Origin: Patescibacteria group bacterium | GTDB taxonomy: Bacteria; Patescibacteriota; Minisyncoccia; UBA6257; 2-01-FULL-56-20 | Direction: 5' to 3' | Assembly: GCA_018971305.1 (NCBI GenBank) | Contig: JAGXBC010000004.1 | Span: 4,028 to 68,027 of the forward strand | Length of the DNA stretch: 64,000 nucleotides | Shown: positions 5,038 to 51,678 of the stretch, in pieces | Numbering within the stretch: position 1 is the first letter of the stretch | Layout: each line of letters begins with the position of its first letter | Notes under the pieces: model-generated | What the model was told of the DNA's origin: nothing | Seen by the model: only the letters and a program-made list of their open reading frames with translations | The model's database searches: none | Position numbers and translations under genes: made by a program

Positions 5038-5069
5038 CTTAATCTAGAGGATAAACAGCGGAGGCCTAT

Positions 5070-5420: not shown

Positions 5421-5458
5421 ATACCTAAAAACTAAAGCTGCTACCTATTTAATATTGC

Positions 5459-35428: not shown

Positions 35429-35430
35429 CC

Positions 35431-36420: not shown

Positions 36421-36490
36421 ATAATAATTTTAGAACAATTTTACCGAGATGCACAAATGATGATTGTGGCCAGTTAGAGATAATAATAAA

Positions 36491-37270
36491 CTATGGAACG
36501 TCATCAATTTTCATTGCTGCAAGACATAAAAACAAAGGTATTTCTTTCCGGGCAATGTCTTCCGCCTTGGCCCGCGGACCCGGCTCGCTCTTTTTATGCG
36601 AATTCCATTCTTCCAGCGCCGTAACCGCTAAACCGGCTTTCCGTAACACCTTAAAATAAAATTGCAGCGGACGGTGAAAAGAAAGCGTATGCTTTCCCGG
36701 ATTGTCCCCGGGGTGCATCTCTATCGGCACCTTGGCCTCGGAAAGATATTTATCTATGCGACGATATTGTATTTTGGCCTTATCATCCCAACCCCAACTG
36801 CTGGCTTTGGGAACGCGGAATGCAGGATGGTTCATGACGATAAAAATCTTGCCGCCAAGCTTAAGTACGCGCGCGCATTCGCGCAACGCCTCCCCAACAC
36901 CGTCTATGTTTTGCAGGGCGAGAACGACAGCAATCTTATTTACGCTTTCGTTCTTTATAAATGGAAACTTTCCCGCGGAAGCAACTTCAAAATGAATATC
37001 TTCGGGCGAATGAGTCCTGGCCAGAGCTATTAAAGTCCGCGATGCGTCAACTCCCGTGACTCGCGCTCCGGCTCGCAGAAATTCCCTGGCGAAAAACCCT
37101 TGTCCGCAGGCAAGATCAAGAACCGTCTCTCCCTTTTTTATTTCCATAAGGCGCAAAAGGTTGGGCAATATCAAATCTTTCTGATACGTCCCCTGGCCCT
37201 CAAGCATTCGGTCATACCATTTAGCAACCCCCTCCCAGGAAGTATCTTTTTTATGTACGGGTTTTTTCAT
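36491..37270 (-). CDS. Class I SAM-dependent methyltransferase. Track ORF to 37318; likely start at Met17.
   Basis: Motif I VLDLACGQG and motif post-I. Confidence 0.75.
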   Translation of the reverse strand: MKKPVHKKDTSWEGVAKWYDRMLEGQGTYQKDLILPNLLRLMEIKKGETVLDLACGQGFFAREFLRAGARVTGVDASRTLIALARTHSPEDIHFEVASAGKFPFIKNESVNKIAVVLALQNIDGVGEALRECARVLKLGGKIFIVMNHPAFRVPKASSWGWDDKAKIQYRRIDKYLSEAKVPIEMHPGDNPGKHTLSFHRPLQFYFKVLRKAGLAVTALEEWNSHKKSEPGPRAKAEDIARKEIPLFLCLAAMKIDDVP

Positions 37271-37321
37271 GCGGTTGCTCTTATTATATTGGCCAGAAGG
37301 AAATAATAAAAGCTCCACGGT

Positions 37322-37350
37322 TTGACGCGAAAAAAAATTTGCGATAAAAT
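37322..37350 (+). promoter_or_regulatory. Near-consensus sigma70 promoter for the small membrane protein paralog A.
   Basis: TTGACG, 17 nt spacer, TAAAAT. AAGGAGG SD at -8 of the ATG. Confidence 0.5.
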
Positions 37351-37380
37351 ATCCTAAGTTTATTTTGGAAGGAGGAAACT

Positions 37381-37680
37381 ATGCTTCTCTGGGTAGGATT
37401 ACTTTTGGCAGGTCTTTCCCTTTTTGGTTTCGTGGGATACTCCCACATCCGATACGGGTATTACTGGGCCATGCGTCCCGACAAACTTGTTGTTGCCGTG
37501 TGCTTAACCGCATGGGCTATGTATTACGTCGGCTTGATTAAGCTGGTAGGAACTGAGCATGTTAACACCACCTACATTGGTATTAAAATCCTTGCATTTA
37601 TACTCACGCTTGGAGTTCTCACCTCAAGTAATAAAGTAGGTAGGGCCATAGCTAGAGTAAGAAATCGGAGAGAAGAATAA
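37381..37680 (+). CDS. Small membrane protein (99 aa, 3 TM), paralog A of 42760..43077.
   Basis: LxxGLxLFGFxGYSxxRxGxYW..R.D shared with the paralog. Own promoter, strong RBS and terminator. Confidence 0.6.
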   Translation: MLLWVGLLLAGLSLFGFVGYSHIRYGYYWAMRPDKLVVAVCLTAWAMYYVGLIKLVGTEHVNTTYIGIKILAFILTLGVLTSSNKVGRAIARVRNRREE

Positions 37681-37715
37681 AATTTCTCCCGCAAAACATC
37701 CTAAAACCCACAACG

Positions 37716-37748
37716 ACCCGCCAAATTGGTGGGCGTTTTTATATCCAA
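37716..37748 (+). terminator. Intrinsic terminator of paralog A.
   Basis: cccgcca-aat-tggtgggcg followed by TTTTTAT. Confidence 0.6.
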
Positions 37749-37809
37749 AAATAGATTTAATAAAAAACCACCCAGAAAATCTGGGCGGTTCGCACAAATA
37801 GGATAATTA

Positions 37810-38070
37810 TTATTTTTCTTTCGAAAATATGAAGTCGCGCAAAAATTCAAATCCCGCGGGCGTATCTTCAAACAAATCGCCTTTAGGGGGTTTTTTCTCC
37901 GGCTCTTTGGGAACATGCTCCCCGGGTGGAACCGGAATATGAACATTCCCCTTGGCGCCACATTTTCCACAACGCACTGTTACGGTTGTTCCATAATGTT
38001 TTTCCGAAATCCGAAATTGTAATTTATAGCCGCAACCCGGACATTGTACGGTACGGAATCCTTTTTCCAT
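37810..38070 (-). CDS. Small zinc-ribbon protein (86 aa).
   Basis: CPGCG...CGKCG. Lys/Pro-rich tail. Confidence 0.4.
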   Translation of the reverse strand: MEKGFRTVQCPGCGYKLQFRISEKHYGTTVTVRCGKCGAKGNVHIPVPPGEHVPKEPEKKPPKGDLFEDTPAGFEFLRDFIFSKEK

Positions 38071-38182
38071 ATTCTCCTCTCTGATTCCAAAATTCTGTGA
38101 TAGATTATAACGCCAGCCGGTAATAACATCAAACGCGTTGGCCCTAAAATAAAGCGCTCCAGCGATGCTGGAGCTTTTAATA

Positions 38183-39043
38183 TTATCTATTTATAAGACT
38201 GGGTTGTTCGTAGGGGTCGGCGGGGTCATCAATCGTTCCGCAAAATTCTGCAGCAATCGATAAGTATTCATGGACAACGAGCCAATCAAATCTGCCCTGT
38301 ACATCCTTCATCTTCCTTTCTGTATCAATGTTCAAGTTGCGAAAAGTGAAAAATAGGTCGCTTAGTCCAGGGAGAACTCTTCCTTCAAGGCCTCCAGCAA
38401 CACCGAGACCCAGAGAACTGTTTTCCTGATGAATGACGCTAAGATATCTCATTGCTTTCTCGGCATCCAAAAGTTTTCCGGTACCGCCGCTCATATCAAA
38501 GAGAATGTCGGAAACAAATCCGCCGAAAGAAGCGATGTGCCTCGCAAGTTCATTCGGGGCTTTTTCACCAAAAACATTTTCCAGTTCGCTTACGACAGCG
38601 GACGAGGTCTGAAGGATTATGCGAACATTTGGATAGTTAACGCAGTACTTCGCGAGCTCGCTTATAATACGCTCCCGTACGGCTGGCCGGTTGATACTGA
38701 GATCATTGAGTTGGAAACCATGAAGGCGCCTTCCACCCAAATCTGTCAGCCTAAGCAGCTGATCGCTTAGGGTATTTGGATTATTCGTGTTGTAATGAAT
38801 CAGGTTCAAAACCTTGGCAGAGTCATCAGTTCTGAAGACATGTTGTATCCGGCTTCCTGGAGCATAACGTTTCTCTTGAAGACTCTTATCGCACAAAAGA
38901 GAGTTCTGATCTGCACTAACTCCGATCATTAGAGGCCTCTTGTTGCGCACACCCTTAAGCTGCTCTGACCAAAACGCAATCGTGTTTTCAACCTCCAACG
39001 GCCAGAGATAACCGTTAATTCCTACATACGGAGCAAAACGCAT
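38183..39043 (-). CDS. Hypothetical protein. The C-terminal half has a PRAI(TrpF)-like TIM-barrel phosphate-binding motif.
   Basis: FDMSGGTGKLLD...LGVAGGL resembles TrpF D.SGGTG..FDW...LAGGL. No other trp genes nearby, so function unassigned. Confidence 0.45.
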   Translation of the reverse strand: MRFAPYVGINGYLWPLEVENTIAFWSEQLKGVRNKRPLMIGVSADQNSLLCDKSLQEKRYAPGSRIQHVFRTDDSAKVLNLIHYNTNNPNTLSDQLLRLTDLGGRRLHGFQLNDLSINRPAVRERIISELAKYCVNYPNVRIILQTSSAVVSELENVFGEKAPNELARHIASFGGFVSDILFDMSGGTGKLLDAEKAMRYLSVIHQENSSLGLGVAGGLEGRVLPGLSDLFFTFRNLNIDTERKMKDVQGRFDWLVVHEYLSIAAEFCGTIDDPADPYEQPSLINR

Positions 39044-39206
39044 ATTGTGATTCTCCTTTCAATTTGGGCTGAGAACATATTAAAGCTTGGTACGGTGTTT
39101 AGTCAATAGTTATTCCGCTATATATTACAAAACCTATCGCATCTAGGGCGGGCTTAGCCGGGAATTAGAAACAAAAAAAATCGGCGCCGAAGTTCGGAAC
39201 CGATGT

Positions 39207-39710
39207 TTAATTTATTCTAAAGAAGAAAATCGCCTGCGCTGCGGTGATGGCCGCAGACATAAACATAACCGCGTCGCCGAAACTGAAACGCCATTTGGGG
39301 AAAATATCCGCGAATATGTCTGCCAGAAACGCCAACTTTGTGTCCGAACCCATCGGACGATACATTACTGTGTCGCGCAGTCGTTGATGAGAACGAACAA
39401 TACTAGGCATCCTACCCCCGTTGACACAGATAACGGCCAGGTTTAAGGCGCTCCCAAAAGGCAGCATATACTTTAGTGCCCAATATTGATGATTTCCGAG
39501 AACTAGGCAGGAAAATATCAGCAACATACCGGTTGTAAAGATTGTTATGACGGTTATCACTCTCAGCTTTGCCGAAGAAAAAAAACGCCATAGAAAATGA
39601 TCTGCCACCCATACCACGAAAAAGATAATCGGGTGGATGACAATATTCTTAACCAACGGAACCAGGGCGAAAATTATAAACCAGAGTACGAAATAGCCAT
39701 AAAGAAACAT
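39207..39710 (-). CDS. Hypothetical integral membrane protein (about 5 TM).
   Basis: Hydrophobicity pattern only. Confidence 0.45.
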   Translation of the reverse strand: MFLYGYFVLWFIIFALVPLVKNIVIHPIIFFVVWVADHFLWRFFSSAKLRVITVITIFTTGMLLIFSCLVLGNHQYWALKYMLPFGSALNLAVICVNGGRMPSIVRSHQRLRDTVMYRPMGSDTKLAFLADIFADIFPKWRFSFGDAVMFMSAAITAAQAIFFFRIN

Positions 39711-39818
39711 GCCTCATCCTCCCGTCCAGAATTTTAAATGCCTGCGCCTATGGTAATACTATGTTCAGCTTCGGTCAAATTTTTTTCGAGATTCTACAGG
39801 CTCCCGCCAACCAAGAAA

Positions 39819-40316
39819 TTATACGATCTTCATCGCCTCCTCTATGATTTTAAAATCCCGGGAAACTATGAACGGCCCGTCGTTAGTTTTAGGCCTGCCC
39901 TTCTTCAATAATTCAACCGCAGTTTCGGGGTTTACCCATTGAACCTCAAAACCATCGTCGATTTCGTCCTGCTCAAAGCGCGGCTCGCCTTTTTTACTTG
40001 TCACGTTGGCAATATAAGAAAACGACTCCTGTTCTTCGTCTCGCTCGTCAGGGAAATGGCGGTACTCGATTATTTCTCCCACCTCTGCCGCAACCTCAAC
40101 GTCGCATCCTATCTCTTCCAAACACTCTCTTTTGAGCGCCTCAATAATACTCTCGCCTTCATCAATGCCGCCGCCGGGAAGTTTATGGTAACCGTGTTTG
40201 GAAACATAAAGCAGGGCCACTTTCCCCTCTTTATCAAAAACAACGGCTCGCGCCGCTTTTCGAACTTTATAATCCCGAAGAACATTTTTATCTCCGAGTG
40301 TCAGTAAAAGTTTCAT
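39819..40316 (-). CDS. NUDIX hydrolase.
   Basis: Nudix box GGGIDEGESIIEALKRECLEEIG (GX5EX7REUXEEXGU). Confidence 0.85.
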   Translation of the reverse strand: MKLLLTLGDKNVLRDYKVRKAARAVVFDKEGKVALLYVSKHGYHKLPGGGIDEGESIIEALKRECLEEIGCDVEVAAEVGEIIEYRHFPDERDEEQESFSYIANVTSKKGEPRFEQDEIDDGFEVQWVNPETAVELLKKGRPKTNDGPFIVSRDFKIIEEAMKIV

Positions 40317-40429
40317 AGGAAAATTATATCATTGAGTGTGATTATTTTGAAAACATTAGCGAAAGAATGGAAAAATAAAATCCCTCTCAAACAACGAGAG
40401 GGTGGAGTTTTGTCCGCCGGAATAGCGTC

Positions 40430-40813
40430 TTACCATTTGTATTCACAACGGCCATTTTCAATTTGCTCCCAGCCAGGATATTCACCCCTTGGGATTGAAG
40501 AGCTCCAGGTGATGATAGAGAATCCAAAAACACTGCGGGACTCCACTACCTTGCCAACGCGAATCTCGCTGTCCAAAGCCACAGGAAATGTCTTCCTTAA
40601 TTCACTTGCCATCTCCTGAAAATCCGCGATGGTGCCCTGGTTGTAACCGACCAACATATGAACATTTGCAAATGTTTTGCCTTTCTCCTTAGATATCAAA
40701 TCCTTCCGCCAATAGATATATTTTCTCATCCCGTTCATATTTTTGTCCACCTTTATTCGAACAAATGCGCTACGAACAAAATAGCACATAAAGTTACTAT
40801 TTATCAACCCCAC
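40430..40813 (-). CDS. Hypothetical protein. The real start is probably the internal Met26 (about 40738).
   Basis: ORF only. The N-terminal 25 aa look non-native. Confidence 0.35.
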   Translation of the reverse strand: MGLINSNFMCYFVRSAFVRIKVDKNMNGMRKYIYWRKDLISKEKGKTFANVHMLVGYNQGTIADFQEMASELRKTFPVALDSEIRVGKVVESRSVFGFSIITWSSSIPRGEYPGWEQIENGRCEYKW

Positions 40814-40931
40814 GGCGCTCTTGCGGCAGATGGATAAAATTGTCGTGCCTACGGATTTGCTTGTCTACCTTTGACAAAATTATAAGCGGAACTTAGTATA
40901 TCAGCAGCTCAAAGATCAATCAGGGGGATTT

Positions 40932-41270
40932 ATGACCACTAATGATCCTACCACGATTATTTACTTGATTTTCGTATTTCTAATAGGAATTTGGGCTCCG
41001 GCTGGAATCTTCATCTATCTCTTGGACGACGTGAAGCGAATCCAAAGTCAGCGGCGGCGGTGGCAATTAATCTCCGCTCTCGGATGCATTTCCATACTCT
41101 GCGTAACACTAATCTGGACAACTGATAATTTTTCCTTCAGCGTCATACAGACCCCGAACTTATGGGTGTTGTCCGCGTACTTCATTATTGTTGGATGGTC
41201 GTTTTTCTTTGCTACGATGGGATTTCTCTTTGGTTTCTTAACCCCCAAGAACGCAACGACGCATGTTTAA
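40932..41270 (+). CDS. Hypothetical membrane protein (3 TM, 112 aa).
   Basis: Hydrophobicity. Followed by a strong terminator. Confidence 0.45.
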   Translation: MTTNDPTTIIYLIFVFLIGIWAPAGIFIYLLDDVKRIQSQRRRWQLISALGCISILCVTLIWTTDNFSFSVIQTPNLWVLSAYFIIVGWSFFFATMGFLFGFLTPKNATTHV

Positions 41271-41290
41271 CCTGCGTCGTTTTTTATTTG
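41247..41290 (+). terminator. Intrinsic terminator.
   Basis: acgacgca-tgtttaacc-tgcgtcgt followed by TTTTTTATTT. Confidence 0.6.
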
Positions 41291-41321
41291 GGCTCTCAGG
41301 GGAAAAACCTGGCAGAGGTAA

Positions 41322-41357
41322 ATAAAAAACCCACCGTTATTGGTGGGTCGTCAATTT
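41322..41357 (-). terminator. Intrinsic terminator of the metallopeptidase gene.
   Basis: Minus strand: cccacc-aataa-cggtggg followed by TTTTTTATTT. Confidence 0.55.
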
Positions 41358-42535
41358 AAAGGAATCTGGATTTTGGGTTTCTCGGACAAGATAAAATATA
41401 TCTCGTAGGCCTCGTTTCCCAGATGGAAGCGGCCTGTTTTAATTGGCCTTACGGAAAATTGATTAATCAGAAAAGCTTCGCCTCCTTTCAGCTTAACCAG
41501 GGTGTTGTCTATATACTTGCCGTAAAGGATCGGGTTGGAGTTGATGATGTCTATGTCGTGCACCGTTCCGCAACATTCGTAGTGCTGCAATTGCTTCCGG
41601 TATCGCAAATCTATTGCGCCAATGGCAGGACGAATGCTTCCGTCCAAATATCCGGCGAGTGAACGCTGTTTGCGCCGCAGTGGTGATAACTGCCCCTGGC
41701 CTCCCCATCTCACACCGCTCTCATCGGTATGATAAACGACGAGAGCAATATCTTGGGATAATTCGTCAAGAGAATTATATGACTCTTTTCGGTCCGCCTT
41801 CAGTAATAGATGTCCATGAGAAAAATCATTATCGCTAAAACTCATAAAGTATCCCTCGCGGAACATAAGGTCAATGTGCGACGAGACCAGTTTGCCGAAT
41901 TTTTCCGGAACGGGAATTTCAACATTTAAGAAAGACGTAATCCGCAAGCTATTGGGATTACAGAATTTTTCCAGACGAGCAAGGCGTCTAAGATGAATCT
42001 TAATGTACGGATTGTCCGTGTTTTCTGACCAGTGCTTAAGGCGGCTTTCAAGTTCCAGGAATTTTGCTACGGCGCAGGGGTCGCGGCCCTCGCCGAGAAA
42101 CGTACTGACCGCGAAATCATCCGCCTCCACCTCTTGTTTTTCCAGAAGCTCAAAATCTTCAAGTGGTTTGCTCAATATGCCGGTAAATTTTGCCGTCGGC
42201 ACATGCTTCAACTTTAAATGGCCGAACTCATGAGCCAGTTCACCGGCATATTCTTCTTCTCCATATCCATTATCGGCAAGAGCAAGTATTTGTCCTTTGC
42301 TTATAACTATCTCGTAGGGCGTAAAGAATCGGGCATACGGCTCCTTGTCCTCATATATAGATATCCTCACGGACTCCACCAAAGGATCTCCCGGGAAAAG
42401 TTCCGATAGAAGGCGCCTTGTGTATGCTTCCCAAGATATTGTGGAAAAATTATTTTTCGTCTTGATCGGAAACTGAGCTAAAGCCAACACAGAAAAAACA
42501 CTCACTGCTATTATGACAAAAAACGGTCTTTTCAT
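41351..42535 (-). CDS. Secreted putative zinc metallopeptidase (HExxH).
   Basis: Signal peptide. GELAHEFGHLKLKH plus downstream EVEADDFAV, a possible third-ligand Glu as in M48/M56-like folds. Confidence 0.55.
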   Translation of the reverse strand: MKRPFFVIIAVSVFSVLALAQFPIKTKNNFSTISWEAYTRRLLSELFPGDPLVESVRISIYEDKEPYARFFTPYEIVISKGQILALADNGYGEEEYAGELAHEFGHLKLKHVPTAKFTGILSKPLEDFELLEKQEVEADDFAVSTFLGEGRDPCAVAKFLELESRLKHWSENTDNPYIKIHLRRLARLEKFCNPNSLRITSFLNVEIPVPEKFGKLVSSHIDLMFREGYFMSFSDNDFSHGHLLLKADRKESYNSLDELSQDIALVVYHTDESGVRWGGQGQLSPLRRKQRSLAGYLDGSIRPAIGAIDLRYRKQLQHYECCGTVHDIDIINSNPILYGKYIDNTLVKLKGGEAFLINQFSVRPIKTGRFHLGNEAYEIYFILSEKPKIQIPLN

Positions 42536-42645
42536 TCAGCCTCCAGATATTCTGGTGATTGCTGGTTTCAATATAGCAGACCAGCTCTCGTATTGTCCAT
42601 CGCAAAAGAATCAATAGAAATTTTCGGTCCTCAGAAAGAACCCGT

Positions 42646-42678
42646 GCTCGGCATGCCTGCGCAGGCAGGGGTTGGGGG
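42646..42678. repeat. GC palindrome plus G-run element (member of intergenic repeat families).
   Basis: gcctgcgcaggc hairpin followed by ggggttggggggcgg. Confidence 0.4.
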
Positions 42679-42697
42679 GCGGTTCGGCAAAAAATTC

Positions 42698-42726
42698 TCC
42701 ACTTGATTTTCCTGGTTGTATATCCT
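42698..42726 (+). promoter_or_regulatory. Sigma70-type promoter for paralog B.
   Basis: TTGATT, 17 nt spacer, TAATAT. TAGGAGG SD upstream of the ATG. Confidence 0.5.
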
Positions 42727-42759
42727 AATATGTCGTTAGTAAAACTTTAGGAGGAATGA

Positions 42760-43077
42760 ATGACTCTTGTGTGGATAGTAGCTTTGTGTCTCGGACTCTT
42801 CTTGTTTGGTTTGATTGGCTACTCCGATCACCGCGAAGGGATTTATTGGACCACGCGCGGAGATAACAGTTTTTGCGTTTTCTTGCTTTCGTTACTTCTG
42901 TATTACGGTAGTTTAATTGAATTGATTGGGTGGAAAAATATACAGAATTCCCCTGCCACAATGATTATCCTTACTATCATCGGGACAGTTAAAGTTTTCG
43001 CCTGGGGTAGGGAAACGGGAAAATATTTTGCCAGAAAAAATAACGGCTGGCGCAAACGCTGCGACATCGTTGTCTAA
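42760..43077 (+). CDS. Small membrane protein (105 aa, 3 TM), paralog B of 37381..37680.
   Basis: LGLFLFGLIGYSDHREGIYWTTRGDN aligns with paralog A LAGLSLFGFVGYSHIRYGYYWAMRPDK. Confidence 0.6.
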   Translation: MTLVWIVALCLGLFLFGLIGYSDHREGIYWTTRGDNSFCVFLLSLLLYYGSLIELIGWKNIQNSPATMIILTIIGTVKVFAWGRETGKYFARKNNGWRKRCDIVV

Positions 43078-43089
43078 TCCCAAACCGCA

Positions 43090-43128
43090 GGTGCCTACCA
43101 CGTTGGTGGGCATTTTTATTTCTCCTCA
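43090..43128 (+). terminator. Intrinsic terminator of paralog B, homologous to the paralog A terminator.
   Basis: gcctacca-cgt-tggtgggc followed by ATTTTTATTT. Confidence 0.6.
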
Positions 43129-43145
43129 AAAATCTAACGCCCTCA

Positions 43146-43178
43146 GAAACAAACTCCGCTCGGGGTTGGGGCGGGCGG
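43146..43178. repeat. 30-nt intergenic repeat with G-quadruplex-capable tract, copy 1.
   Basis: aaacaaActccgctcggggttggggcgggcggg. Copy 2 at 44514..44543 differs by 1 nt over 29. Confidence 0.6.
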
Positions 43179-43256
43179 GCAAGAATAGTTGATATATTAA
43201 AACAGAAAAGCCTCGCACAGAAGGAAGCGCTTAGCTTCTCTGTACGAGGCTTGATA

Positions 43257-43715
43257 TTAATTAACTCGGAAATGCCTTGAGGTGCGGACCTCGATGGCGC
43301 TTGTTACCTCGGCAATGCCGACAAATTTTTTCTTTGCCAACTCCTCGGCGAGTTTCGCCAAATATTTCTCGTAAGCGTACACTTGGGACCTGCGGATGTC
43401 GCGATACTCCGTAAAGAGGTCGAACCAAACCATTTTCAGCGGACCGTTCAGGTCGTGAACAACCACTCGTCCACCGCTGAGATAGAAAAGGCTTTTGTGG
43501 TTCATCTTGGAATCAATGTCATCGTCGTGCCATGGGAACATTGCGTCCACTTCCCGGATCGCCGCGGCCAGCTGCTGCAAATCTAACTCCATGTTATGGC
43601 ATCCATGTCCAATCTCAAAAACAATATTACCTTTGACGTTGTAGCGCCGTTCACCTCGAATCAAGTTAGCCAACCGATTTTCTAAAATCCAGTTTCGCAT
43701 TGTCAAGGTTCTCAT
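43257..43715 (-). CDS. Hypothetical protein. Track ORF to 43739; start moved to Met9, which has a GGAGG SD.
   Basis: taGGAGGtttctcgATG. No recognisable domain. Confidence 0.5.
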   Translation of the reverse strand: MRTLTMRNWILENRLANLIRGERRYNVKGNIVFEIGHGCHNMELDLQQLAAAIREVDAMFPWHDDDIDSKMNHKSLFYLSGGRVVVHDLNGPLKMVWFDLFTEYRDIRRSQVYAYEKYLAKLAEELAKKKFVGIAEVTSAIEVRTSRHFRVN

Positions 43716-43763
43716 CGAGAAACCTCCTATTGGATTCAATCCGATTACTCGAATCGTTCGTAA

Positions 43764-43792
43764 ATATTACAATATAATTCTATATATGTCAA
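43764..43792 (-). promoter_or_regulatory. Consensus sigma70 promoter (TTGACA-17-TAATAT) embedded in a repeated element.
   Basis: Minus strand: ttgaca-tatatagaattatattg-taatat. The element is shared with 46075..46103. Confidence 0.55.
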
Positions 43793-43873
43793 TTAAAAAT
43801 CCCCCGCCCGAACCGGGGTAAACTTGCCGCGCTGAATCCGCCCACCGGCGGGGTGGTGGGGCAGGAGGAGGGG

Positions 43874-43906
43874 TATAAAAAATGCGGGCTCCCTTTTGGG
43901 AGCCCT
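43874..43906 (-). terminator. Intrinsic terminator of the macro-domain gene.
   Basis: Minus strand: gggctccc-aaaa-gggagccc followed by gcatttttta. Confidence 0.6.
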
Positions 43907-43923
43907 GAAATATTTGATGCTTG

Positions 43924-44439
43924 CTAGTTGGCAGAAAAAGCACTGGCCAGTAAGCGATGCAAGTTTGTTTCGTTGTAAACGACAACCGTGATGTTCTGAA
44001 CCGACTTCGGGTTTTCCGACAGGAAGATGTTGACTCCATGAACCATTTCGCTGACCGCCTGCTGCGGAGTCTTTTCGACCACCCCCAGCATAACGCCCAT
44101 CCTGATTGTCGGCAGAGACACGCTTGAGAATCCAGATGTTTCCGCAGTACGCAGGCCAGCAAGAACGATCTGATGCAACGGCCTTGTGAGGTCGTCGACC
44201 ACAAAAATCACGTTCTTGAACTTTCCCGAATTCCTATTGCCGCCACGAGCCACGATGGCTTCTCCGTCCACCAACTTGGCATTCGCCGCTTGCTGATGGA
44301 ACAGTTCACCGGCGGCACGCTGAATGACACCGTCAATGCCACCGAACCACATTCCGCCGGAATTGATAGCGGTGATGAGCGCGTCTGATTCCACTCGGGC
44401 GATATCGCCGGACACAACTTCGATTTTCGTCATTGTCAA
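43924..44439 (-). CDS. Macro domain protein (ADP-ribose binding / processing, MacroD/YmdB-like).
   Basis: VVSGDIARVESDALITAINSGGMWFGGIDGVIQRAAG matches macro-domain N-terminal motifs. GGAGG SD. Confidence 0.8.
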   Translation of the reverse strand: MTMTKIEVVSGDIARVESDALITAINSGGMWFGGIDGVIQRAAGELFHQQAANAKLVDGEAIVARGGNRNSGKFKNVIFVVDDLTRPLHQIVLAGLRTAETSGFSSVSLPTIRMGVMLGVVEKTPQQAVSEMVHGVNIFLSENPKSVQNITVVVYNETNLHRLLASAFSAN

Positions 44440-44513
44440 AACCTCCGCAAGAGATTCAAATCTGGCTCAAGGATATCATTATTTATTGATATTGTCAATC
44501 TCTACCTCCGCAA

Positions 44514-44543
44514 AAACAAGCTCCGCTCGGGGTTGGGGCGGGT
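44514..44543. repeat. 30-nt intergenic repeat, copy 2.
   Basis: aaaacaaGctccgctcggggttggggcggg. Confidence 0.6.
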
Positions 44544-44551
44544 GTGCGAAT

Positions 44552-45457
44552 TTATGCTAGCGACTGGGCGAGATTTTGTTTTGAAAGCATTTCGTAAATA
44601 TTCGGCAGAACCACGGATACTCCGATAAGTATTCCGCCAAGAATCGTCGTGATGCTAAGTATCTCGTGAAACAGAAGCAATCCGAAGAGCACACCAAAAA
44701 CTATTTCCGAAAGAAGAATAATACTTCCTTTATGTGCCTCAATAAATTTAAAGCCGTAAATCGCAAGACCAGAACCGGCAAAGCCGGCAAAGCCATAACC
44801 AACATTAGCGAACCAGGCGGTGGAAGTGAAATCGCTGTTAAAAGATTCTTTGAGGCCCGCGGCTATCATAAAATTAACAGCTATGGCAAAAATATATCCG
44901 TAAACATTTATAAGCGCGGTCGGATACTTAGAGCTTATCTTTTTGCTAAATACAAACCAAAAGCTAAAAAGCGTTCCCGAAACACAGGCCGCCAGGACAG
45001 GGACGATCTTGCCGGCTTCAAAATGTATATCTCCCCAATAGACAAGAAGCAGCCCAACAAATGCGGACGCCAGCGCAATAATACTTATCTTCGTCAATTT
45101 CTCACGAAGGATTAAAGAACCGAGGATATAGCTCGTGATAACCGTAGCCGCGTATTGAATGAACAATGCCGTTCCTATATTGAGGTTTGCGAGTGAATAA
45201 AAGGTAGGAGCAAGCGCTAAAGAACCGACAACCCCCACCACGATAAACCACTTGATATCCTCCTTCCTGATTTTGACGAAAAAATTTTTATAAAAACAAA
45301 ACAGGATAAAACAAAGAAGCGTTATAATGCTCCGCGTCCAGACCTGGGTAAATGGTGCAAAGGCATTACCGATTATTTTAGAAAAAATACCGTACGAAGC
45401 ATAAGCTAACGCGGAGGTGAGAAGTATAAAAAATCCGTATGTTGTGCTTTTTACCAT
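44552..45457 (-). CDS. EamA family (DMT superfamily) transporter.
   Basis: Ten TM helices in two EamA-like halves. Confidence 0.75.
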   Translation of the reverse strand: MVKSTTYGFFILLTSALAYASYGIFSKIIGNAFAPFTQVWTRSIITLLCFILFCFYKNFFVKIRKEDIKWFIVVGVVGSLALAPTFYSLANLNIGTALFIQYAATVITSYILGSLILREKLTKISIIALASAFVGLLLVYWGDIHFEAGKIVPVLAACVSGTLFSFWFVFSKKISSKYPTALINVYGYIFAIAVNFMIAAGLKESFNSDFTSTAWFANVGYGFAGFAGSGLAIYGFKFIEAHKGSIILLSEIVFGVLFGLLLFHEILSITTILGGILIGVSVVLPNIYEMLSKQNLAQSLA

Positions 45458-45530
45458 TATTTGAATTGTAGCAAAAACAAAAAGGCCGGAACTTTCGTCC
45501 CGACCGTATGAGAGCTTTAGCTCTCAAAAT

Positions 45531-46037
45531 TCACTCGATTGATTTCCAGAGGCGCGCTCCGGTTAATCCGTAGGCCTCGCTCCGATAGCCATACCGACTA
45601 GAACTGCTTACAAGAACTGAACCGTCGTTTTGGAAGTCAACGCTTTCCGCCGGGAAATTCAATTGGATTGCCTTGCGAAGATATGGCGTCCCCTCAGAAC
45701 TACAAACGATCGCCAACCATGTTTTGCCGCTTTCATCTCCTCCTACGCTCGTAATGAGCATGGCCGCATCCTGCCAACCGTCGTGATTGAAATCGCCGGA
45801 TGCAATCTGAGCGATAACGGCCACCTTGGTATTCTTGTCTCCAAGGTAGTAGCCTTCTCCGTCGGAGAAATAAATCATTTTCGCTCCGACAAGATAGTGC
45901 TCATTCTTCAGGGTGGTCTCGGGGATCGGGGCGGTCATTCTGTCATGAATGACGTTTTGCCGAACTCCGGAAAAAATCAAGCCAGAAACTGATAAAACGC
46001 TAATCAAACTGAGAACGACCACGGTTTTCTTAGGCAT
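45531..46037 (-). CDS. Secreted hypothetical protein.
   Basis: Signal peptide. No motif. Confidence 0.45.
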   Translation of the reverse strand: MPKKTVVVLSLISVLSVSGLIFSGVRQNVIHDRMTAPIPETTLKNEHYLVGAKMIYFSDGEGYYLGDKNTKVAVIAQIASGDFNHDGWQDAAMLITSVGGDESGKTWLAIVCSSEGTPYLRKAIQLNFPAESVDFQNDGSVLVSSSSRYGYRSEAYGLTGARLWKSIE

Positions 46038-46074
46038 AAATCACCTCACAGAATTTAAATACTAACCTGACGAT

Positions 46075-46103
46075 ATTATACTCTCTGTTTATAAATATGT
46101 CAA
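46075..46103 (-). promoter_or_regulatory. Consensus sigma70 promoter (TTGACA-17-TATAAT) inside a repeated element with GC hairpins.
   Basis: Minus strand: cctgcctcaggcag hairpin, cccgccccgggcggg hairpin, ggattttgattgaca-tatttataaacagagag-tataat. Confidence 0.55.
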
Positions 46104-46193
46104 TCAAAATCCCCCGCCCGGGGCGGGCTGCCTGAGGCAGGAGGGGGTGGAAACTCACAGTAGATATAAAGGTAAATAAAAGAAATAAGAAAT

Positions 46194-47105
46194 TTAAAAT
46201 GGGATCGTTTTTTCTGCTACCTCTTTGGCATCTATATTTAATGTCAATTTTTTAGTAGTCTCCAATCCCCACGTAATAGTAAAAAGGTGTTTTTGTGACA
46301 TATTTAGCAAAGAAATATCGTAATCTAACCCTATTTCTCCTTTATCGTAAATTGTATAAAAAATTTTTAATTTATTATCCACGTCTTTAACAATAGAAAT
46401 GCTACCGCTGCTATTTTTTTCATCAAGAAATATTACCTTCTTATCGTCAGCGAAAGAAATATCGCTCGGTGTCCAAAAAAAGAAGGTGCCCTCCTTGATG
46501 TTTAGGATATTTGTTATTAAATCATCTTTAGTCCAGTCATATAAACTAGCACCGTTCGATTTAAAATTTAAACTTGTAAATAGTCGATTTTTAATAAAGC
46601 CGTTAGCGAAATAAGATAAAATATAATTTTTATCTGACGAATCTTTAATGAACAAATCTAGATTCCATCCATATGGTCCATCTTCAAGGTCGGTCATAAA
46701 TGCTGGCTGTAGGGGGTATACATTGATTTCTGTATCCTTCCCAGGATAAATTGGGTATGCATTATTATAACTATTCCGGGCTTCATTACTAAATGAATAT
46801 CCGCATATATAGATAGTTGAAGCTCCAAGATTTGTTAATTTAACTCGGTTGGTTGCAAAATCAAATTGGGCTTCTATTTGCGGTAATTCGGATTTCGATA
46901 GATTAATAATTACATTTTGTTGAACTATAAGATTTTTTATGGATTGGAATACGGTTTGGTTGGGAGAAATTATAAATCCAACCAAGGTCAATATAGCCCC
47001 CACCACGGCTATCCACTCTGCTTGTGACTGCCCCCTCAAGGCTAATACAGCAAACACCACCGTCAAACTGCCCCCGACTATTTGTAGCCACCACCCAAGA
47101 CTCAT
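46194..47105 (-). CDS. Hypothetical membrane-anchored protein encoded in a markedly AT-rich (about 30% GC) segment. Probable horizontal acquisition.
   Basis: N-terminal 2 TM. GC content far below the window average. No motif. Confidence 0.5.
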   Translation of the reverse strand: MSLGWWLQIVGGSLTVVFAVLALRGQSQAEWIAVVGAILTLVGFIISPNQTVFQSIKNLIVQQNVIINLSKSELPQIEAQFDFATNRVKLTNLGASTIYICGYSFSNEARNSYNNAYPIYPGKDTEINVYPLQPAFMTDLEDGPYGWNLDLFIKDSSDKNYILSYFANGFIKNRLFTSLNFKSNGASLYDWTKDDLITNILNIKEGTFFFWTPSDISFADDKKVIFLDEKNSSGSISIVKDVDNKLKIFYTIYDKGEIGLDYDISLLNMSQKHLFTITWGLETTKKLTLNIDAKEVAEKTIPF

Positions 47106-47112
47106 AAGTTTC

Positions 47113-47910
47113 TTATTTAATATTCTTTATATACCTACATTTCGGAAAATTTGAACAACCCCAAAATTGTTTACCGGCATAATCCCCTTGATGCGCCGTT
47201 CGAAGCTCTAGCTTACCACCACATTGAGGACAAATTTTTTCGTCTTGAGTTGCAGCCGGCTGTTGCGCTGGCAAATCCTCCGGCACGGCGTCTTTGCCAT
47301 ACGAAAGCCTATAGTATTTGATCAACTTCAAGCCATCGATAAGTTCTATTCTCGGATTTCCTTCAGCAGCCTTCTCTGCCATCATAGTGAAATTACCCGT
47401 TGTAACAAAAAATCCCTTTTCTGCCGGATTATTAATATTGGTAATCGCCCCAAGAAAATCGCGAACTTCGTGCGGGGTTACTTCTCTGGTTATAAACTTT
47501 TTACACTGAATAAAATATTTTTTGCCGTCCTTGTGTGCGATAACATCTATTCCCCCATCGTTTGCCCCACCAACAACCTCCGCTTTATATCCCAACCCTT
47601 CAAACATATCTGCAACCTCCTTTTCAAACTGCGCCGGCGACATACCTTTTAACATGTATAAAATCTTGTCGTCGCTTAAAAACGCAAGACCCCTGTTGTC
47701 GTGCGCTCTTTTCTTTAGAACAAAATATAAAATTACGCCGACAACCAAAACTACGGTGGCGATAATTCCATATAGAATGGCTTGCTCGCGATGTGTATAT
47801 GCCCAACCAAACAAACCAAGAATAAAAAGACCAATAATGCCGCTGGCAATGTCAACAAGCTCTTCTTTTGGAGATTTTCGCCTATAGTAATAACGCCTCC
47901 TTCTTGCCAT
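47113..47910 (-). CDS. Membrane-anchored restriction endonuclease-like (Mrr_cat) protein with a C-terminal topoisomerase-type C4 zinc ribbon.
   Basis: N-terminal 2 TM. Mrr catalytic-core-like GGANDGGIDVIA...QCKKF. C-terminal CPQCGG...WGCSNFPKCRY. Confidence 0.7.
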   Translation of the reverse strand: MARRRRYYYRRKSPKEELVDIASGIIGLFILGLFGWAYTHREQAILYGIIATVVLVVGVILYFVLKKRAHDNRGLAFLSDDKILYMLKGMSPAQFEKEVADMFEGLGYKAEVVGGANDGGIDVIAHKDGKKYFIQCKKFITREVTPHEVRDFLGAITNINNPAEKGFFVTTGNFTMMAEKAAEGNPRIELIDGLKLIKYYRLSYGKDAVPEDLPAQQPAATQDEKICPQCGGKLELRTAHQGDYAGKQFWGCSNFPKCRYIKNIK

Positions 47911-48096
47911 ATAATTTTACGACTTCTTAAAATCCGCCCAAAGGGAGAATAGGCCGAGCGCGAGGAAGAGCGCCGCCTCCGCCCAATTCTGTTTTTGCAA
48001 TGCCTCAATAAGCGCTATACCGAAAAAGATTATGAATACCGTGATGTTTACGAATTTTATGTTTTTCATATTTATCAGTATAATCCCAAATTTTGT

Positions 48097-48654
48097 TTAG
48101 CTCAATTTCTTTTCCACCTCCTCCCACGAAAATACCCGCTCAACGTTTTTGGGAAACTCGCCCTCCCTGTTCCACGGCTGATCAAAAAGAAAAACTCTTA
48201 TGCCGGCGGCGGCGCAATCAATGGCCGTAGCCAGATTGTCTTCAATAAAAACGTCTATCTCCAGCTCTTTGCATATCCCGGATTTTTTCCCGAAAGTTGT
48301 GTGGTGAACGTCCGCGAAGGCGTCCGGAAAACGCCCTTCTATCCACAATTTTGTCTCTTCCCTTTCTTTTGTCTCTCTCGCTGTGATTATATAAAGTTCG
48401 TGTCCCTGGGCTTTGATTGCCTTTATCGCTTTTACGGAACCTGCCACAGGATTGATCTTCTTAAGCTGGTCCGTAGCAAAAAATTCGTCCAGTTCTTTAA
48501 CGCGCTCTTCACGCGAGATGCCCCAGGTTTTTTCCCAGGAAAACTCGCGGAAGTCCGCCTTTTTAAAATCGGCTCCGTGTTTTTTATTGTGCATCTCGAT
48601 GATAGCGGCTCCGGAATCCGCCACTACGTCATCGAGGTCAAGTCCGATACGCAT
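48097..48654 (-). CDS. HAD superfamily 5'(3')-deoxyribonucleotidase-like protein.
   Basis: Motif I GLDLDDV. About 185 aa, NT5C-like. Confidence 0.65.
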   Translation of the reverse strand: MRIGLDLDDVVADSGAAIIEMHNKKHGADFKKADFREFSWEKTWGISREERVKELDEFFATDQLKKINPVAGSVKAIKAIKAQGHELYIITARETKEREETKLWIEGRFPDAFADVHHTTFGKKSGICKELEIDVFIEDNLATAIDCAAAGIRVFLFDQPWNREGEFPKNVERVFSWEEVEKKLS

Positions 48655-48658
48655 TTGG

Positions 48659-51118
48659 TTATTTCCTAACCTGTTTCTCCTTCTTTGCTATCGCTACCGT
48701 GGTTTTCACAACTGTGTCGGGGTTAAGGGACATGCTGTCAATGCCGGCTTCCACAAGGAATTCGGCGAAGTCCGGATAATCGGACGGGCCCTGGCCGCAG
48801 ATGCCGATGTATTTGCGCTTTGCTTTGCAGATTTTTATGACGTCCGCTATCAACTTCTTTATCGCCGGATTTTTTTCGTTCGCCACTTTGCTTACAATTC
48901 CCGAATCGCGGTCCAGTCCGAGCGTGAGTTGCGTAAGGTCGTTGGAACCGATAGACATTCCGTCAAAAATTTCCAAAAATTCGTTTGCCAAAATAACGTT
49001 GGATGGAATTTCGCACATCACGTAGATTGGAGTAATTGCTCTGCTTTTATCCTTATTCCTTACTCCTTTCTCCACATACCTCGTTACAAGTCCCACCTCT
49101 GCCATCGCCTCCTGGGTTTTTATTCCTTCTTCCACCGTGCGGCAGAAGGGCACCATCGGAATCACGTTCGTGAGGCCCATTTCTTCGCGGACGATTTTCA
49201 CCGCCGCGGCTTCCATCATAAAAGCCGGCTTGAACTTGGGGTCGTAGTAGCGGGAAGCGCCGCGCCAGCCGATCATCGGATTTTCTTCTTTCGGTTCGTA
49301 GGCCTCGCCGCCCAAAAGCGTTCTGTATTCGTTGGTCTTGAAGTCCGAGAAGCGGACGATAACCGGCCGTGGGTAGAAAGCCACGCCTATCTTCGCGATG
49401 CCAAAAGCAAGATTATCAATATAATATTTTTTCTGGTCTCTCCAGCCACTCATTTTACCGGCAATCTCCCGGCGCACGGCTGGTTTTTGTTTGGAAAGAT
49501 TTAATAAGGCCAAAGGATGAATGCCGATTTTGGAAGCGATAATAAATTCCTCGCGCGCGAGGCCCACGCCGGAATTCGGCAGGAAGGACGTTTCAAAAGC
49601 GGTGTCGGGCATCGCGACATTGACCATTACTTTGGTTTTCGGGTGCGGGATTTTCTTCAAATCGTGCTCAATAACTTTGAACTTCATAAATCCGCGGTAA
49701 ACGTTGCCGGCACTACCTGTAGTGTCTACCGTAACCGGGTCGCCGGTTTTTATAAATTTAGTGGCGTTCTCCGTTCCCACAACCGCCGGAATGCCGAGCT
49801 CGCGGCTAACTATTGCCGCGTGCGAAGTGCGGCCGCCTTTGTCCGTAACTATCGCCGAGGCAATCTTCATAATCGGTTCCCAGTCCGGGTCTGTCATCGT
49901 GGTCACCAAGACCTCGCCTTTCTTGAAATCGCGGATGCGTTTCGCGTCCAGTATCACGCGCGCTTTACCGGTTGCTATCCTTGAACCCACGGATGCCCCG
50001 GTTACAATTATCCTTGCTTCTTGCTTCCTACTTCCTACTTCCTGTAAGCGGTATTCCTTAATCTTTGAATAATCCTGATTGGCGTGAACGGTCTCAGGCC
50101 TCGCCTGAACGATAAAGAGCTCCCCCGTTATGCCGTCTTTTGCCCATTCCATATCCATCGGCGTCCACTTTTTATAGTGGTCGCTGTAGTGTTTTTCAAT
50201 AATCATGCCCCATTGCGCGAGCTGGGAAACTTCTTTATCCGTGAGAACAAAGCGGGCGCGCTCCACGGGCGACGTGGGAACTATTTTTGTCTGTTGAATC
50301 GCCTGGCCGGCATGGTAGATCATTTTCTGCAATTTAACGCCGAGCTTTTTTTCTATGATCGGATGCGGAACGCCGGTATCAAGTCCTTTTTTCCAAACGA
50401 ACCATTCATCCGGCGTCACTTCGCCTTTCACTATCATTTCTCCCAAACCCCAGGAACCGTTGATTAAAACGACGTCCGGGAAACCGGACTCGGTGTCCAG
50501 CGTGAACATTACGCCGGATGAGGCGCGGTCGGAGCGCACCATTTTCTGCACGCCGACGGAAAGCGCGATCTTCAGATGGTCAAAGTGGCGGTCGGCGCGG
50601 TAGGAAATAGCCCGGTCTGTGAATAAAGATGCCATCGTTGCCCTGACTGCGGCTACAACTTCTTCCGCTCCGCGGATTCCCAAGTAACTCTCCTGCTCGC
50701 CGGCGAAACTTGCTCCCGGCAAATCTTCGGCAGTTGCCGAGGAACGCACAGCTACATCAACATTCTTGCCGTAATGTTTTTCCATTTCCCGATAGGAACG
50801 GACAACCTCCGCGGATAAATCCTTGGGAAGCTTGGCGTGCATAATCGCGTAGCGTATCGCCGAACCGCGTTCGTGCAATTCTTTTAAATTTTTCGTTTTC
50901 AAACCCTGGAGCGTTTCTTTGATAAATTTATCCAAACCGGTTTTTTTGAGGAAATAGAAATAGGCCGTTGCGGTAACGACAAATCCGGACGGCACCGGCA
51001 CGCCTTTGGATTTAAGCGTGCGGATCATTTCTCCGAGCGAAGCATTCTTGCCGCCCACGAGGGAAACATCTTTAATGCCGACTTCTTCAAAAGGAAGGAT
51101 TAGTTTTTTGGACTTCAT
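48659..51118 (-). CDS. ppsA: Phosphoenolpyruvate synthase (pyruvate, water dikinase).
   Basis: N-terminal GGKNASLGEM. Phospho-His domain GGRTSHAAIVSRELGIPAVVG. C-terminal PEP-utilising TIM barrel. 819 aa. Confidence 0.9.
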   Translation of the reverse strand: MKSKKLILPFEEVGIKDVSLVGGKNASLGEMIRTLKSKGVPVPSGFVVTATAYFYFLKKTGLDKFIKETLQGLKTKNLKELHERGSAIRYAIMHAKLPKDLSAEVVRSYREMEKHYGKNVDVAVRSSATAEDLPGASFAGEQESYLGIRGAEEVVAAVRATMASLFTDRAISYRADRHFDHLKIALSVGVQKMVRSDRASSGVMFTLDTESGFPDVVLINGSWGLGEMIVKGEVTPDEWFVWKKGLDTGVPHPIIEKKLGVKLQKMIYHAGQAIQQTKIVPTSPVERARFVLTDKEVSQLAQWGMIIEKHYSDHYKKWTPMDMEWAKDGITGELFIVQARPETVHANQDYSKIKEYRLQEVGSRKQEARIIVTGASVGSRIATGKARVILDAKRIRDFKKGEVLVTTMTDPDWEPIMKIASAIVTDKGGRTSHAAIVSRELGIPAVVGTENATKFIKTGDPVTVDTTGSAGNVYRGFMKFKVIEHDLKKIPHPKTKVMVNVAMPDTAFETSFLPNSGVGLAREEFIIASKIGIHPLALLNLSKQKPAVRREIAGKMSGWRDQKKYYIDNLAFGIAKIGVAFYPRPVIVRFSDFKTNEYRTLLGGEAYEPKEENPMIGWRGASRYYDPKFKPAFMMEAAAVKIVREEMGLTNVIPMVPFCRTVEEGIKTQEAMAEVGLVTRYVEKGVRNKDKSRAITPIYVMCEIPSNVILANEFLEIFDGMSIGSNDLTQLTLGLDRDSGIVSKVANEKNPAIKKLIADVIKICKAKRKYIGICGQGPSDYPDFAEFLVEAGIDSMSLNPDTVVKTTVAIAKKEKQVRK

Positions 51119-51128
51119 TGGTTATATT

Positions 51129-51668: not shown

Positions 51669-51678
51669 GAAAGATTTC

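Follow-up and report, generated by a model that had tools for sequence, protein, structure and literature searches.

A probable lineage-specific accessory-gene patch inside a conserved glycolytic gene cluster of a Patescibacteria genome

Introduction

Genomic islands, some of them carrying restriction genes, have been documented as common in Patescibacteria (PMC12455944). We analyzed a block of 18 genes, here called the accessory block, that lies between ppsA and a 2-hydroxyacid dehydrogenase gene (2HAdh) in a Paceibacteria-like metagenome-assembled genome (MAG) of a Patescibacteria group bacterium (GCA_018971305.1). The window, meaning the whole stretch of DNA that was analyzed, comprises 64,000 nucleotides (nt) of contig JAGXBC010000004.1 (positions 4,028 to 68,027) and carries nearly all of its genes on the minus strand. 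Macro, NUDIX, nucleotidase and nuclease domains are types that recur in defense systems. An earlier note on this DNA had read window positions 37322 to 48000 as a candidate defense or signalling island, while allowing for a simple collection of unrelated accessory genes.

The described systems closest to such a locus are of several kinds. DarTG is a conserved gene pair of the ADP-ribosyltransferase (ART) DarT and the macro domain protein DarG, and Thoeris and other NAD+-derived signalling systems are built on TIR (ThsB) or SIR2/SLOG (ThsA) proteins. Mrr-type IV restriction endonucleases (PF04471) have a Mrr_cat PD-(D/E)xK domain and are encoded by stand-alone genes, to which the Escherichia coli enzyme adds an N-terminal winged-helix DNA-binding domain. 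Classical genomic islands combine a break in synteny with an integrase or recombinase, a tRNA or att target, flanking repeats and deviant base composition, and integron arrays consist of promoterless cassettes with attC sites and IntI. The accessory block is probably a lineage-specific variable region, a patch of heterogeneous, independent units inside a conserved glycerate kinase-ppsA-2HAdh-enolase cluster.

Results

We mapped the genes flanking the accessory block onto 80 genomic loci around relatives of ppsA, the best of which all came from Patescibacteria MAGs at identities of at most 75%. Many Patescibacteria keep a glycerate-kinase-like gene, ppsA, 2HAdh and enolase together as a conserved cluster (window positions 34232-52965; loci L003 to L066). 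In 10 of the loci, the closest relative among them, 2HAdh comes about 12 to 250 nt after ppsA (L003, L004, L005, L006, L007, L016, L019, L024, L042 and L066), and enolase comes next in most of these. Enolase directly follows ppsA, within 50 nt, in at least 10 further loci, and upstream of ppsA more than 40 loci keep the glycerate-kinase-like gene. Relatives of the block's own proteins were found in these 80 loci for the NUDIX hydrolase (L025, L021 and a weak 29% match in L051) and the methyltransferase (L069) only. The L025 NUDIX gene, whose product is 51% identical to ours, lies directly upstream of ppsA. The L069 methyltransferase is 62% identical and lies 5 kb upstream of ppsA; the methyltransferase is therefore probably a lineage gene and not a foreign one. 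The accessory stretch that had been noted before is thus real and breaks housekeeping synteny, with slightly wider bounds than first given (36421-48658).

Other lineages also carry additional genes near this place. Between ppsA and 2HAdh, we found a 4.6-kb insert including a P-type ATPase gene in L012, a 2-kb PaaX-like insert in L011 and a 1-kb insert in L029, and a gene for a protein of 600 amino acids (aa) lies between enolase and 2HAdh in L014. Because such unrelated inserts occur near the same place, the ppsA/2HAdh junction is recurrently variable.

Next, we scanned positions 36 to 50 kb of the window for promoter-like and terminator-like sites on the basis of consensus sequences. Both were commoner than expected (40 promoter-like sites versus 24.2 +/- 4.9, and 28 terminator-like sites versus 18.6 +/- 4.8), and strong sites were somewhat denser in the accessory block than in its flanks. 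A promoter-like site stands immediately upstream of 12 of the 18 genes, and a hairpin with a T run immediately downstream of 10. The 99-aa membrane protein gene, for instance, has its own promoter-like site (37322-37350) and terminator-like site (37717-37733), and the 168-aa gene has a promoter matching the consensus at 12 of 12 positions (46103-46075) and a terminator-like site (45505-45484). Shine-Dalgarno sequences, read directly from the spacers, precede most starts in the block, and spacers between genes have a median length of 112 nt in it versus 43 nt in the rest of the window (Mann-Whitney p = 0.014, with crude open reading frame [ORF] calls). These data agree with the independent transcription that had been proposed for the genes. 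In the minus-strand spacers of the NUDIX (40317-40351) and EamA (45458-45480) genes, -10-like boxes (TATAAT; TGCTACAAT) end 7 to 8 nt before the ATG, with no Shine-Dalgarno sequence between box and start codon, and the transcripts of both genes look leaderless.

To describe the gene content, we called ORFs and scanned the proteins against Pfam, NCBIfam, PADLOC and PHROGs (Table 1). Their public entries read 'MAG: hypothetical protein KGJ89_0xxxx [Patescibacteria group bacterium]'. Transmembrane or signal-like segments mark 10 of the 18 proteins as membrane or secreted, and 4 to 5 of the 18 genes are nucleotide or nuclease genes, so that the block consists mostly of envelope proteins rather than nucleotide enzymes. 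The earlier note, which had called the functions unknown or nucleotide-related, thus overstated that part of the content. Its domain calls were sound for the NUDIX hydrolase (6e-18), the macro protein (MacroD type, 2e-06), the NT5C nucleotidase (8e-13) and the membrane-anchored Mrr_cat-zinc-ribbon nuclease (1e-28 and 3e-11). The small membrane proteins that it took for paralogues are true ones (the 99-aa and 105-aa plus-strand products; 36% identity, BLASTP E value of 2e-07), and the gene at 46194-47105 does have a low GC content (0.345 versus about 0.45). The other 17 genes lie between 0.42 and 0.53, like the rest of the window, and GC content at third codon positions is also window-like for all genes but one. 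In place of several zinc-ribbon miniproteins we found one, of 86 aa, the sole small ORF in the block with at least two CxxC motifs. The 394-aa metalloprotease-like protein matches Peptidase_M48 in its N-terminal part only (2e-04) and the phrog_87 metalloprotease (1e-05), and the 127-aa protein has no match in Pfam, NCBIfam, PADLOC or PHROGs. The 50-aa gene is called on an identical Logan contig (L001), and in L002 the ORF is present but uncalled.

We then examined linkage by tracing gene neighborhoods in other genomes for three of the 18 families, namely, the 152-aa protein, the 286-aa protein and the Mrr-like nuclease. Family sizes for the first two were counted among 5.8e9 clusters. The 152-aa family (15 clusters) occurs in five contexts, singly in all of them: beside YceG, PaaX_M and DNA ligase; beside L10/L12; beside S6 and SSB; beside L25 with RF1/PrmC; and, in the last, within a block of unknown genes that also holds a serine recombinase. 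Neither a macro gene nor any other gene of our block adjoins it in any of the five. The 286-aa family (8 homologues) occurs in three independent contexts (L102/L103, L104/L105 and L106), none of which holds a gene of the block. For the nuclease, we found 13 relatives in the metagenome collection at 43 to 75% identity, with no other protein of the block beside any of them. Their neighbors differ at every locus and include a Schlafen/AlbA_2 protein with a serine recombinase, a NUDIX protein, an M23 peptidase, a terminase-small-like helix-turn-helix protein, DinB with a MazG-like protein, a second membrane-anchored Mrr_cat gene and DUF3800. On 593 plasmid records, relatives with both nuclease and zinc ribbon carry the annotation 'restriction endonuclease'; in the three that we inspected, the gene encodes about 265 to 276 aa and is solitary, with TraN among the neighbors. 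PADLOC found no multi-gene system among the proteins of the block and convincingly matched single-gene nuclease models only; the NUDIX protein has a partial match to a single-gene candidate, and the methyltransferase matches mad2 through a generic methyltransferase domain. Among the 18 proteins, Pfam and PADLOC showed no DarT, TIR, SIR2, SLOG, CARF or SAVED component.

These results bear on what had been proposed for the locus. That no known system architecture is matched still stands, since there is no PADLOC system and the components of DarTG and Thoeris are missing. The candidate defense or signalling island is not supported: there is no multi-gene system, and the homologues of the three traceable genes are scattered singly. 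The earlier note had itself suggested looking at linkage in related genomes and had named homologues scattered singly, with no conserved linkage, as an outcome that would refute the island. This is the outcome here, since relatives of the 152-aa protein, the 286-aa protein and the nuclease never adjoin another gene of the block.

The Mrr-like nuclease is the only individually defense-like element of the block, and from its domains a role in defense is plausible. It matches Mrr_cat PF04471 at 1.2e-28 over 112 of 115 profile positions and Zn_ribbon_Top1 at 2.7e-11, and in PADLOC it matches PDC-S02 (1.9e-20), mREase_IV (9.3e-14) and the ZorD nuclease domain. Read from the translation, the motif DGGID...IQCKK has the form D...(Q/E)xK. 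Two transmembrane helices precede the catalytic domain at the N terminus, and no Mrr_N (winged-helix) match was found in the protein. By the positive-inside rule, its nuclease and zinc-ribbon domains would both be cytoplasmic. In L091 (positions 285-2383), two membrane-anchored Mrr_cat genes stand in tandem, a 267-aa homologue of our nuclease followed by a 424-aa transmembrane protein with a C-terminal Mrr_cat domain.

The macro protein appears to be a distant member of the MacroD/YmdB type, which is the housekeeping kind. Its PF01661 score is above the cut-off, its best match in the PDB is E. coli YmdB (3.3e-08), and NCBIfam O-acetyl-ADP-ribose deacetylase models match down to 1.7e-13, below their equivalog cut-offs. 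The motif N-x6-GG[VLI]D is present as NSGGMWFGGID. The gene has its own promoter-like site (44498-44470) and terminator-like site (43905-43886). Its neighbor, the 152-aa protein, probably starts with MRTLTMRNW at position 43715, and its homologues also start with MRT. In an alignment of this family, the QVYAYEKYLAKLAEEL helix is invariant and there is an FPW motif, and the protein has no match in Pfam, NCBIfam or PADLOC. Its AlphaFold2 model has a ferredoxin-like alpha+beta fold (predicted local distance difference test [pLDDT] score of 85.8), and the best fold matches in the PDB are an S-adenosylmethionine (SAM)-AMP lyase and a phage SAM lyase at template-modeling scores (TM-scores) of 0.38 to 0.47. 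Given these scores, no sequence support and no named viral match, we did not adopt a SAM-lyase reading and keep it as a lead only. We also rejected a DarTG-like or Thoeris-like reading of the two neighbors, as there are no ART, TIR or SIR2 domains and homologues of the 152-aa protein never stand beside a macro gene.

The 286-aa protein has no match in Pfam or NCBIfam at E values of up to 0.1 and no sequence match in the PDB, even with the family profile. Its AlphaFold2 model is a confident (beta-alpha)8 barrel (pLDDT of 89.7), for which the top Foldseek matches were triosephosphate isomerase, KDO8PS and aldolases at TM-scores of about 0.5, not TrpF. The previous label of a PRAI-like TIM-barrel protein therefore does not hold beyond the generic fold; the sole resemblance to PRAI/TrpF is a DxSGGxG motif. 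This phosphate-binding-like motif, D-x-S-G-G-x-G, is invariant in the family alignment. In L104, a family member (P0019) lies beside genes for adenylosuccinate synthase, IMPDH, adenylosuccinate lyase and a dCMP-deaminase-like protein. A word-indexed search with the 303-aa protein matched only the protein itself. This gene is not an ORFan, however: by exhaustive searching with HMMER we recovered a single full-length homologue, together with about 48 proteins (representative clusters) that share residues of approximately 200 to 301. Most of the latter consist of about 108 aa and are free-standing. In an alignment of this C-terminal domain, 14 of 20 sequences match PF13385. The Laminin_G_3-like domain (46194-46500, minus strand) has about 100 residues, which is about half the usual size.

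Rather than several families of GC-rich repeats, as described before, the block holds two repeats of about 30 to 40 nt with two copies each, and their folding is not unusual. The 40-nt repeat has a 21-nt core that is exact in both copies, with 0 such cores expected by chance; on the plus strand (43155-43175 and 44522-44541) it reads GGGGTTGGGGCGGG(C/T)G(G/T)GC, a G-quadruplex-like run. Both repeats fold no better than shuffled sequences (z-scores of -1.4 to +1.0) and match no Rfam family, the tRNA being the only Rfam match in the window. No copy was found in 109 other fetched loci except for the identical Logan contig. With two copies each, folding z-scores near 0 and no Rfam match, we rejected an integron/attC or structured-RNA reading of these repeats. 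Elsewhere in the window, on the minus strand (13574-16627), a 1,017-aa ORF contains internal direct repeats (90-nt units 267 nt apart, with GGN/CCN-rich runs) and is probably a repetitive surface protein.

Table 1. Features of the accessory block and its flanking genes, in window coordinates
Feature	Position	Strand	Basis or remark
2-hydroxyacid dehydrogenase (2HAdh)	35431-36420	-	left flank
Whole accessory stretch, 18 genes	36421-48658	.	12,238 bp between 2HAdh start and ppsA stop
Class I SAM-dependent methyltransferase, 275 aa	36491-37318	-	Methyltransf_11 2.5e-17
Small membrane protein with 3 transmembrane segments, 99 aa	37381-37680	+	transmembrane segments; paralogue of 42760-43077
Zinc-ribbon miniprotein, 86 aa, two CxxC pairs	37810-38070	-	sub-threshold zinc-ribbon Pfam matches
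(beta-alpha)8 TIM-barrel protein, 286 aa	38183-39043	-	rare family, 8 members; AlphaFold2 model
DUF5317 membrane protein, 167 aa	39207-39710	-	PF17248 1e-09; transmembrane segments
NUDIX hydrolase, 165 aa	39819-40316	-	PF00293 5.9e-18
Hypothetical protein, 127 aa or shorter	40430-40813	-	no family match
Small membrane protein with 3 transmembrane segments, 112 aa	40932-41270	+	transmembrane segments; promoter-like site 40871-40899
Signal-anchored HExxH metalloprotease-like protein, 394 aa	41351-42535	-	N-terminal hydrophobic segment
Small membrane protein, 105 aa	42760-43077	+	transmembrane segments; terminator-like site 43089-43115
40-nt GC-rich intergenic repeat, copy 1	43141-43180	.	88% identical to copy 2
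Hypothetical alpha+beta protein, 160-aa ORF, likely 152 aa	43257-43739	-	rare family of 15
GC hairpin + TTGACATAT promoter block, copy 1	43764-43818	-	similar to block at 46075-46127
MacroD/YmdB-type macro domain protein, about 170 aa	43924-44439	-	PF01661 2.2e-06
40-nt GC-rich intergenic repeat, copy 2	44508-44547	.	
EamA/DMT-family transporter, 301 aa	44552-45457	-	PF00892 1.7e-29, two repeats
Signal-anchored or secreted protein, 168 aa	45531-46037	-	N-terminal hydrophobic segment
GC hairpin + promoter block, copy 2	46075-46127	-	303-aa gene terminator and 168-aa gene 12/12 promoter
Membrane protein with 2 transmembrane segments, low GC, 303 aa, C-terminal concanavalin-A/Laminin_G_3-like domain	46194-47105	-	GC 0.345
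Membrane-anchored Mrr-like PD-(D/E)xK nuclease, 265 aa, C-terminal topoisomerase-type zinc ribbon	47113-47910	-	
Miniprotein with a single transmembrane segment, 50 aa	47917-48069	-	transmembrane segment
NT5C-family HAD 5'(3')-deoxyribonucleotidase-like protein, 185 aa	48097-48654	-	PF06941 8e-13; phrog_420 3.4e-31
ppsA	48659-51118	-	right flank

Discussion

At this locus, conserved synteny is broken by genes of mixed content that carry separate transcription signals and lack conserved linkage. The simple collection of unrelated accessory genes, which the earlier note had kept as its second option, fits the synteny break, the separate signals and the missing linkage. As a lineage-specific variable region, the block would comprise about 14 transcription units with products acting independently. 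These would be mainly envelope proteins (three small membrane proteins, the DUF5317 protein, the EamA transporter, the signal-anchored metalloprotease-like protein, the secreted 168-aa protein, the membrane-anchored lectin-like 303-aa protein and the 50-aa transmembrane peptide) and generic nucleotide house-cleaning enzymes (the NUDIX hydrolase, a MacroD-type ADP-ribose/O-acetyl-ADP-ribose hydrolase and the NT5C nucleotidase), the remainder being some rare orphan families. The Mrr-like nuclease would most likely be a solitary restriction-type endonuclease at the cytoplasmic face of the membrane. We infer that the genes were gathered piecemeal at an insertion-tolerant junction, and the individual biochemical roles are likewise inferred.

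Several observations weigh against this interpretation. The linkage of the macro, NUDIX, NT5C, M48-like, EamA and remaining genes was checked in 110 loci only, and several families are rare (8 to 15 members), so that few contexts lie behind the missing linkage. The closest relative, at 75% ppsA identity, is too distant to date the region or to count the steps of its build-up. Furthermore, ppsA and the NT5C, 50-aa, Mrr and 303-aa genes follow each other with gaps of 4, 27, 6 and 7 nt, and the sole promoter-like site between ppsA and the 303-aa gene is weak (9/12) and lies inside the 3' end of the NT5C gene. These four genes may be co-transcribed with ppsA, which could reflect shared function. 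Finally, a nucleotide hydrolase of another family adjoins an Mrr homologue in L095 (NUDIX, 9965-11109) and in L093 (MazG-like, 4361-5602).

The last two points lead to the idea that the operon appended to ppsA is a functional module, either a nuclease-plus-nucleotidase defense unit or a DNA-scavenging unit for a nucleotide-auxotrophic cell of the candidate phyla radiation (CPR). We consider this unlikely. In addition to the tight spacing and the hydrolases in L095 and L093, the group has a terminator only after the 303-aa gene and its order recurs on two Logan contigs that are independent but come from the same population. However, the NT5C, 50-aa and 303-aa genes are absent beside the nuclease in all 13 metagenome loci and all three plasmids, where its neighbors (a Schlafen/AlbA_2 protein with a serine recombinase, M23 peptidase, DUF3800 and TraN) are otherwise unrelated. 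The GC content of the 303-aa gene is very different, and a separate acquisition is therefore suggested. Some nucleotide hydrolase (NT5C, NUDIX or MazG-like) adjoins the nuclease in 3 of 11 contexts, which is within reach of chance adjacency to common enzymes, and in none of the three plasmid contexts; such a hydrolase is not established as an obligatory partner of the nuclease, and we rejected it as one.

A broader proposal for Paceibacteria, which we regard as a long shot, makes two assertions jointly. The ppsA/2HAdh junction would be a recurrent, integrase-free accretion site to which self-contained promoter-gene-terminator units are added one by one, possibly via the short GC-rich intergenic blocks. 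The Mrr_cat-zinc-ribbon nuclease and a nucleotide hydrolase, the latter interchangeable (NT5C in this genome, NUDIX or MazG-like in other loci), would at the same time form a two-part module for defense or for DNA scavenging in nucleotide-auxotrophic CPR cells.

It is highly improbable that the remnant of a mobile element (a prophage, an integrative element or an integron-like cassette array) delivered the genes together. Such a delivery is suggested by the interruption of a conserved cluster, by the small repeated GC-rich intergenic blocks, by the Mrr homologues in L090 and L099 and the 152-aa homologue in L108 that lie near serine recombinases, and by the match of the NT5C protein to phrog_420 at 3.4e-31. 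On the other side, Pfam and PHROGs showed no integrase, recombinase, transposase or phage structural domain in any protein of the block, the rest of the window not having been scanned for IntI. We detected no direct repeats around the block and no flanking tRNA gene, the only one (32658-32730) lying 3.7 kb outside it. The right junction is 4 nt from the ppsA stop, directly at the NT5C gene, and GC content is native for 17 of the 18 genes. The repeats lack attC-like folding (z-scores of about 0), and the units carry their own promoters, unlike integron cassettes. IMG/VR held no close relatives of the nuclease or the macro protein and one distant match to NT5C (28% identity); as the PHROGs matches are to generic enzymes only, we rejected a prophage or viral origin. 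Because mobile-element genes, flanking tRNA genes or repeats and IMG/VR relatives are missing, composition is native and the junction is 4 nt from ppsA, the evidence argues that the genes accumulated long ago or within the lineage, probably piecemeal, and did not arrive by the recent insertion of a mobile element.

Least credible is the idea that the macro, NUDIX, NT5C, TIM-barrel and Mrr proteins cooperate in one coherent island, so far undescribed, for anti-phage defense or NAD+/ADP-ribose signalling: all of these domain types, known from defense systems, are confirmed within 12 kb and the nuclease matches PDC-S02 and mREase_IV, but PADLOC finds no system architecture, unrelated membrane genes and the genes' own promoters and terminators separate them, for three members, no homologue lies together with another member, the macro protein looks like the housekeeping MacroD/YmdB type and the NUDIX homologue beside ppsA in a relative stands without other genes of the block within an 8.5-kb contig.

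The lineage-specific variable region that we favor has some wider meaning. As an example, it would be a clean one: lineage-specific genes divide a conserved glycolytic cluster, at a junction where other lineages vary too. It also calls for caution, as macro, NUDIX, nucleotidase and nuclease domains that follow each other in a CPR genome may mimic a defense island and dissolve under a neighborhood test. The membrane-anchored Mrr_cat-zinc-ribbon nuclease is a widespread, uncharacterized architecture and a cheap candidate for phage challenge. Three very rare families (the 286-aa TIM barrel, the 152-aa alpha+beta protein and the half-size lectin-like domain) have confident predicted folds.

Compared with the known systems, the block has none of the TIR or SIR2/SLOG proteins of Thoeris and related NAD+-derived signalling among its 18 products. 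It resembles DarTG in that a macro gene adjoins a gene for a small protein. This neighbor, however, lacks a DUF4433/ART signature and has a predicted ferredoxin-like fold, the macro protein is of the MacroD/YmdB type, and, unlike a conserved pair, the two genes are separated by the terminator-like hairpin at 43905-43886 and a promoter-like site at 43792-43764. To the MacroD/YmdB O-acetyl-ADP-ribose deacetylases the macro protein is tied by its best sequence matches (YmdB and the NCBIfam PRK00431 models) and its N-x6-GG[VLI]D motif; it differs from them by scores below the NCBIfam cut-offs and by a second glycine-rich motif, GVMLG instead of GVYG. The nuclease shares with Mrr-type IV enzymes (mREase_IV and PDC-S02) the Mrr_cat PD-(D/E)xK domain, the D...QxK motif and a stand-alone gene without an adjacent cognate methyltransferase, whereas two transmembrane helices and a C-terminal zinc ribbon take the place of the winged helix of E. 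coli Mrr.

As for the larger elements, integron cassettes are promoterless, whereas the genes here have their own promoter-like sites, and the repeats are limited to two copies. Of the features of a classical genomic island, the block has the break in synteny and lacks an integrase or recombinase, a tRNA/att target, flanking repeats and, with one low-GC gene as the exception, deviant base composition. The same lack of an integrase, a tRNA target and (one gene excepted) compositional deviation separates it from CPR genomic islands (PMC12455944); it was recognized by synteny and not by island-prediction software, and it may not have arrived as one unit. What it shares with those islands is a set of lineage-specific, largely hypothetical genes that interrupts synteny and includes a restriction-type nuclease.

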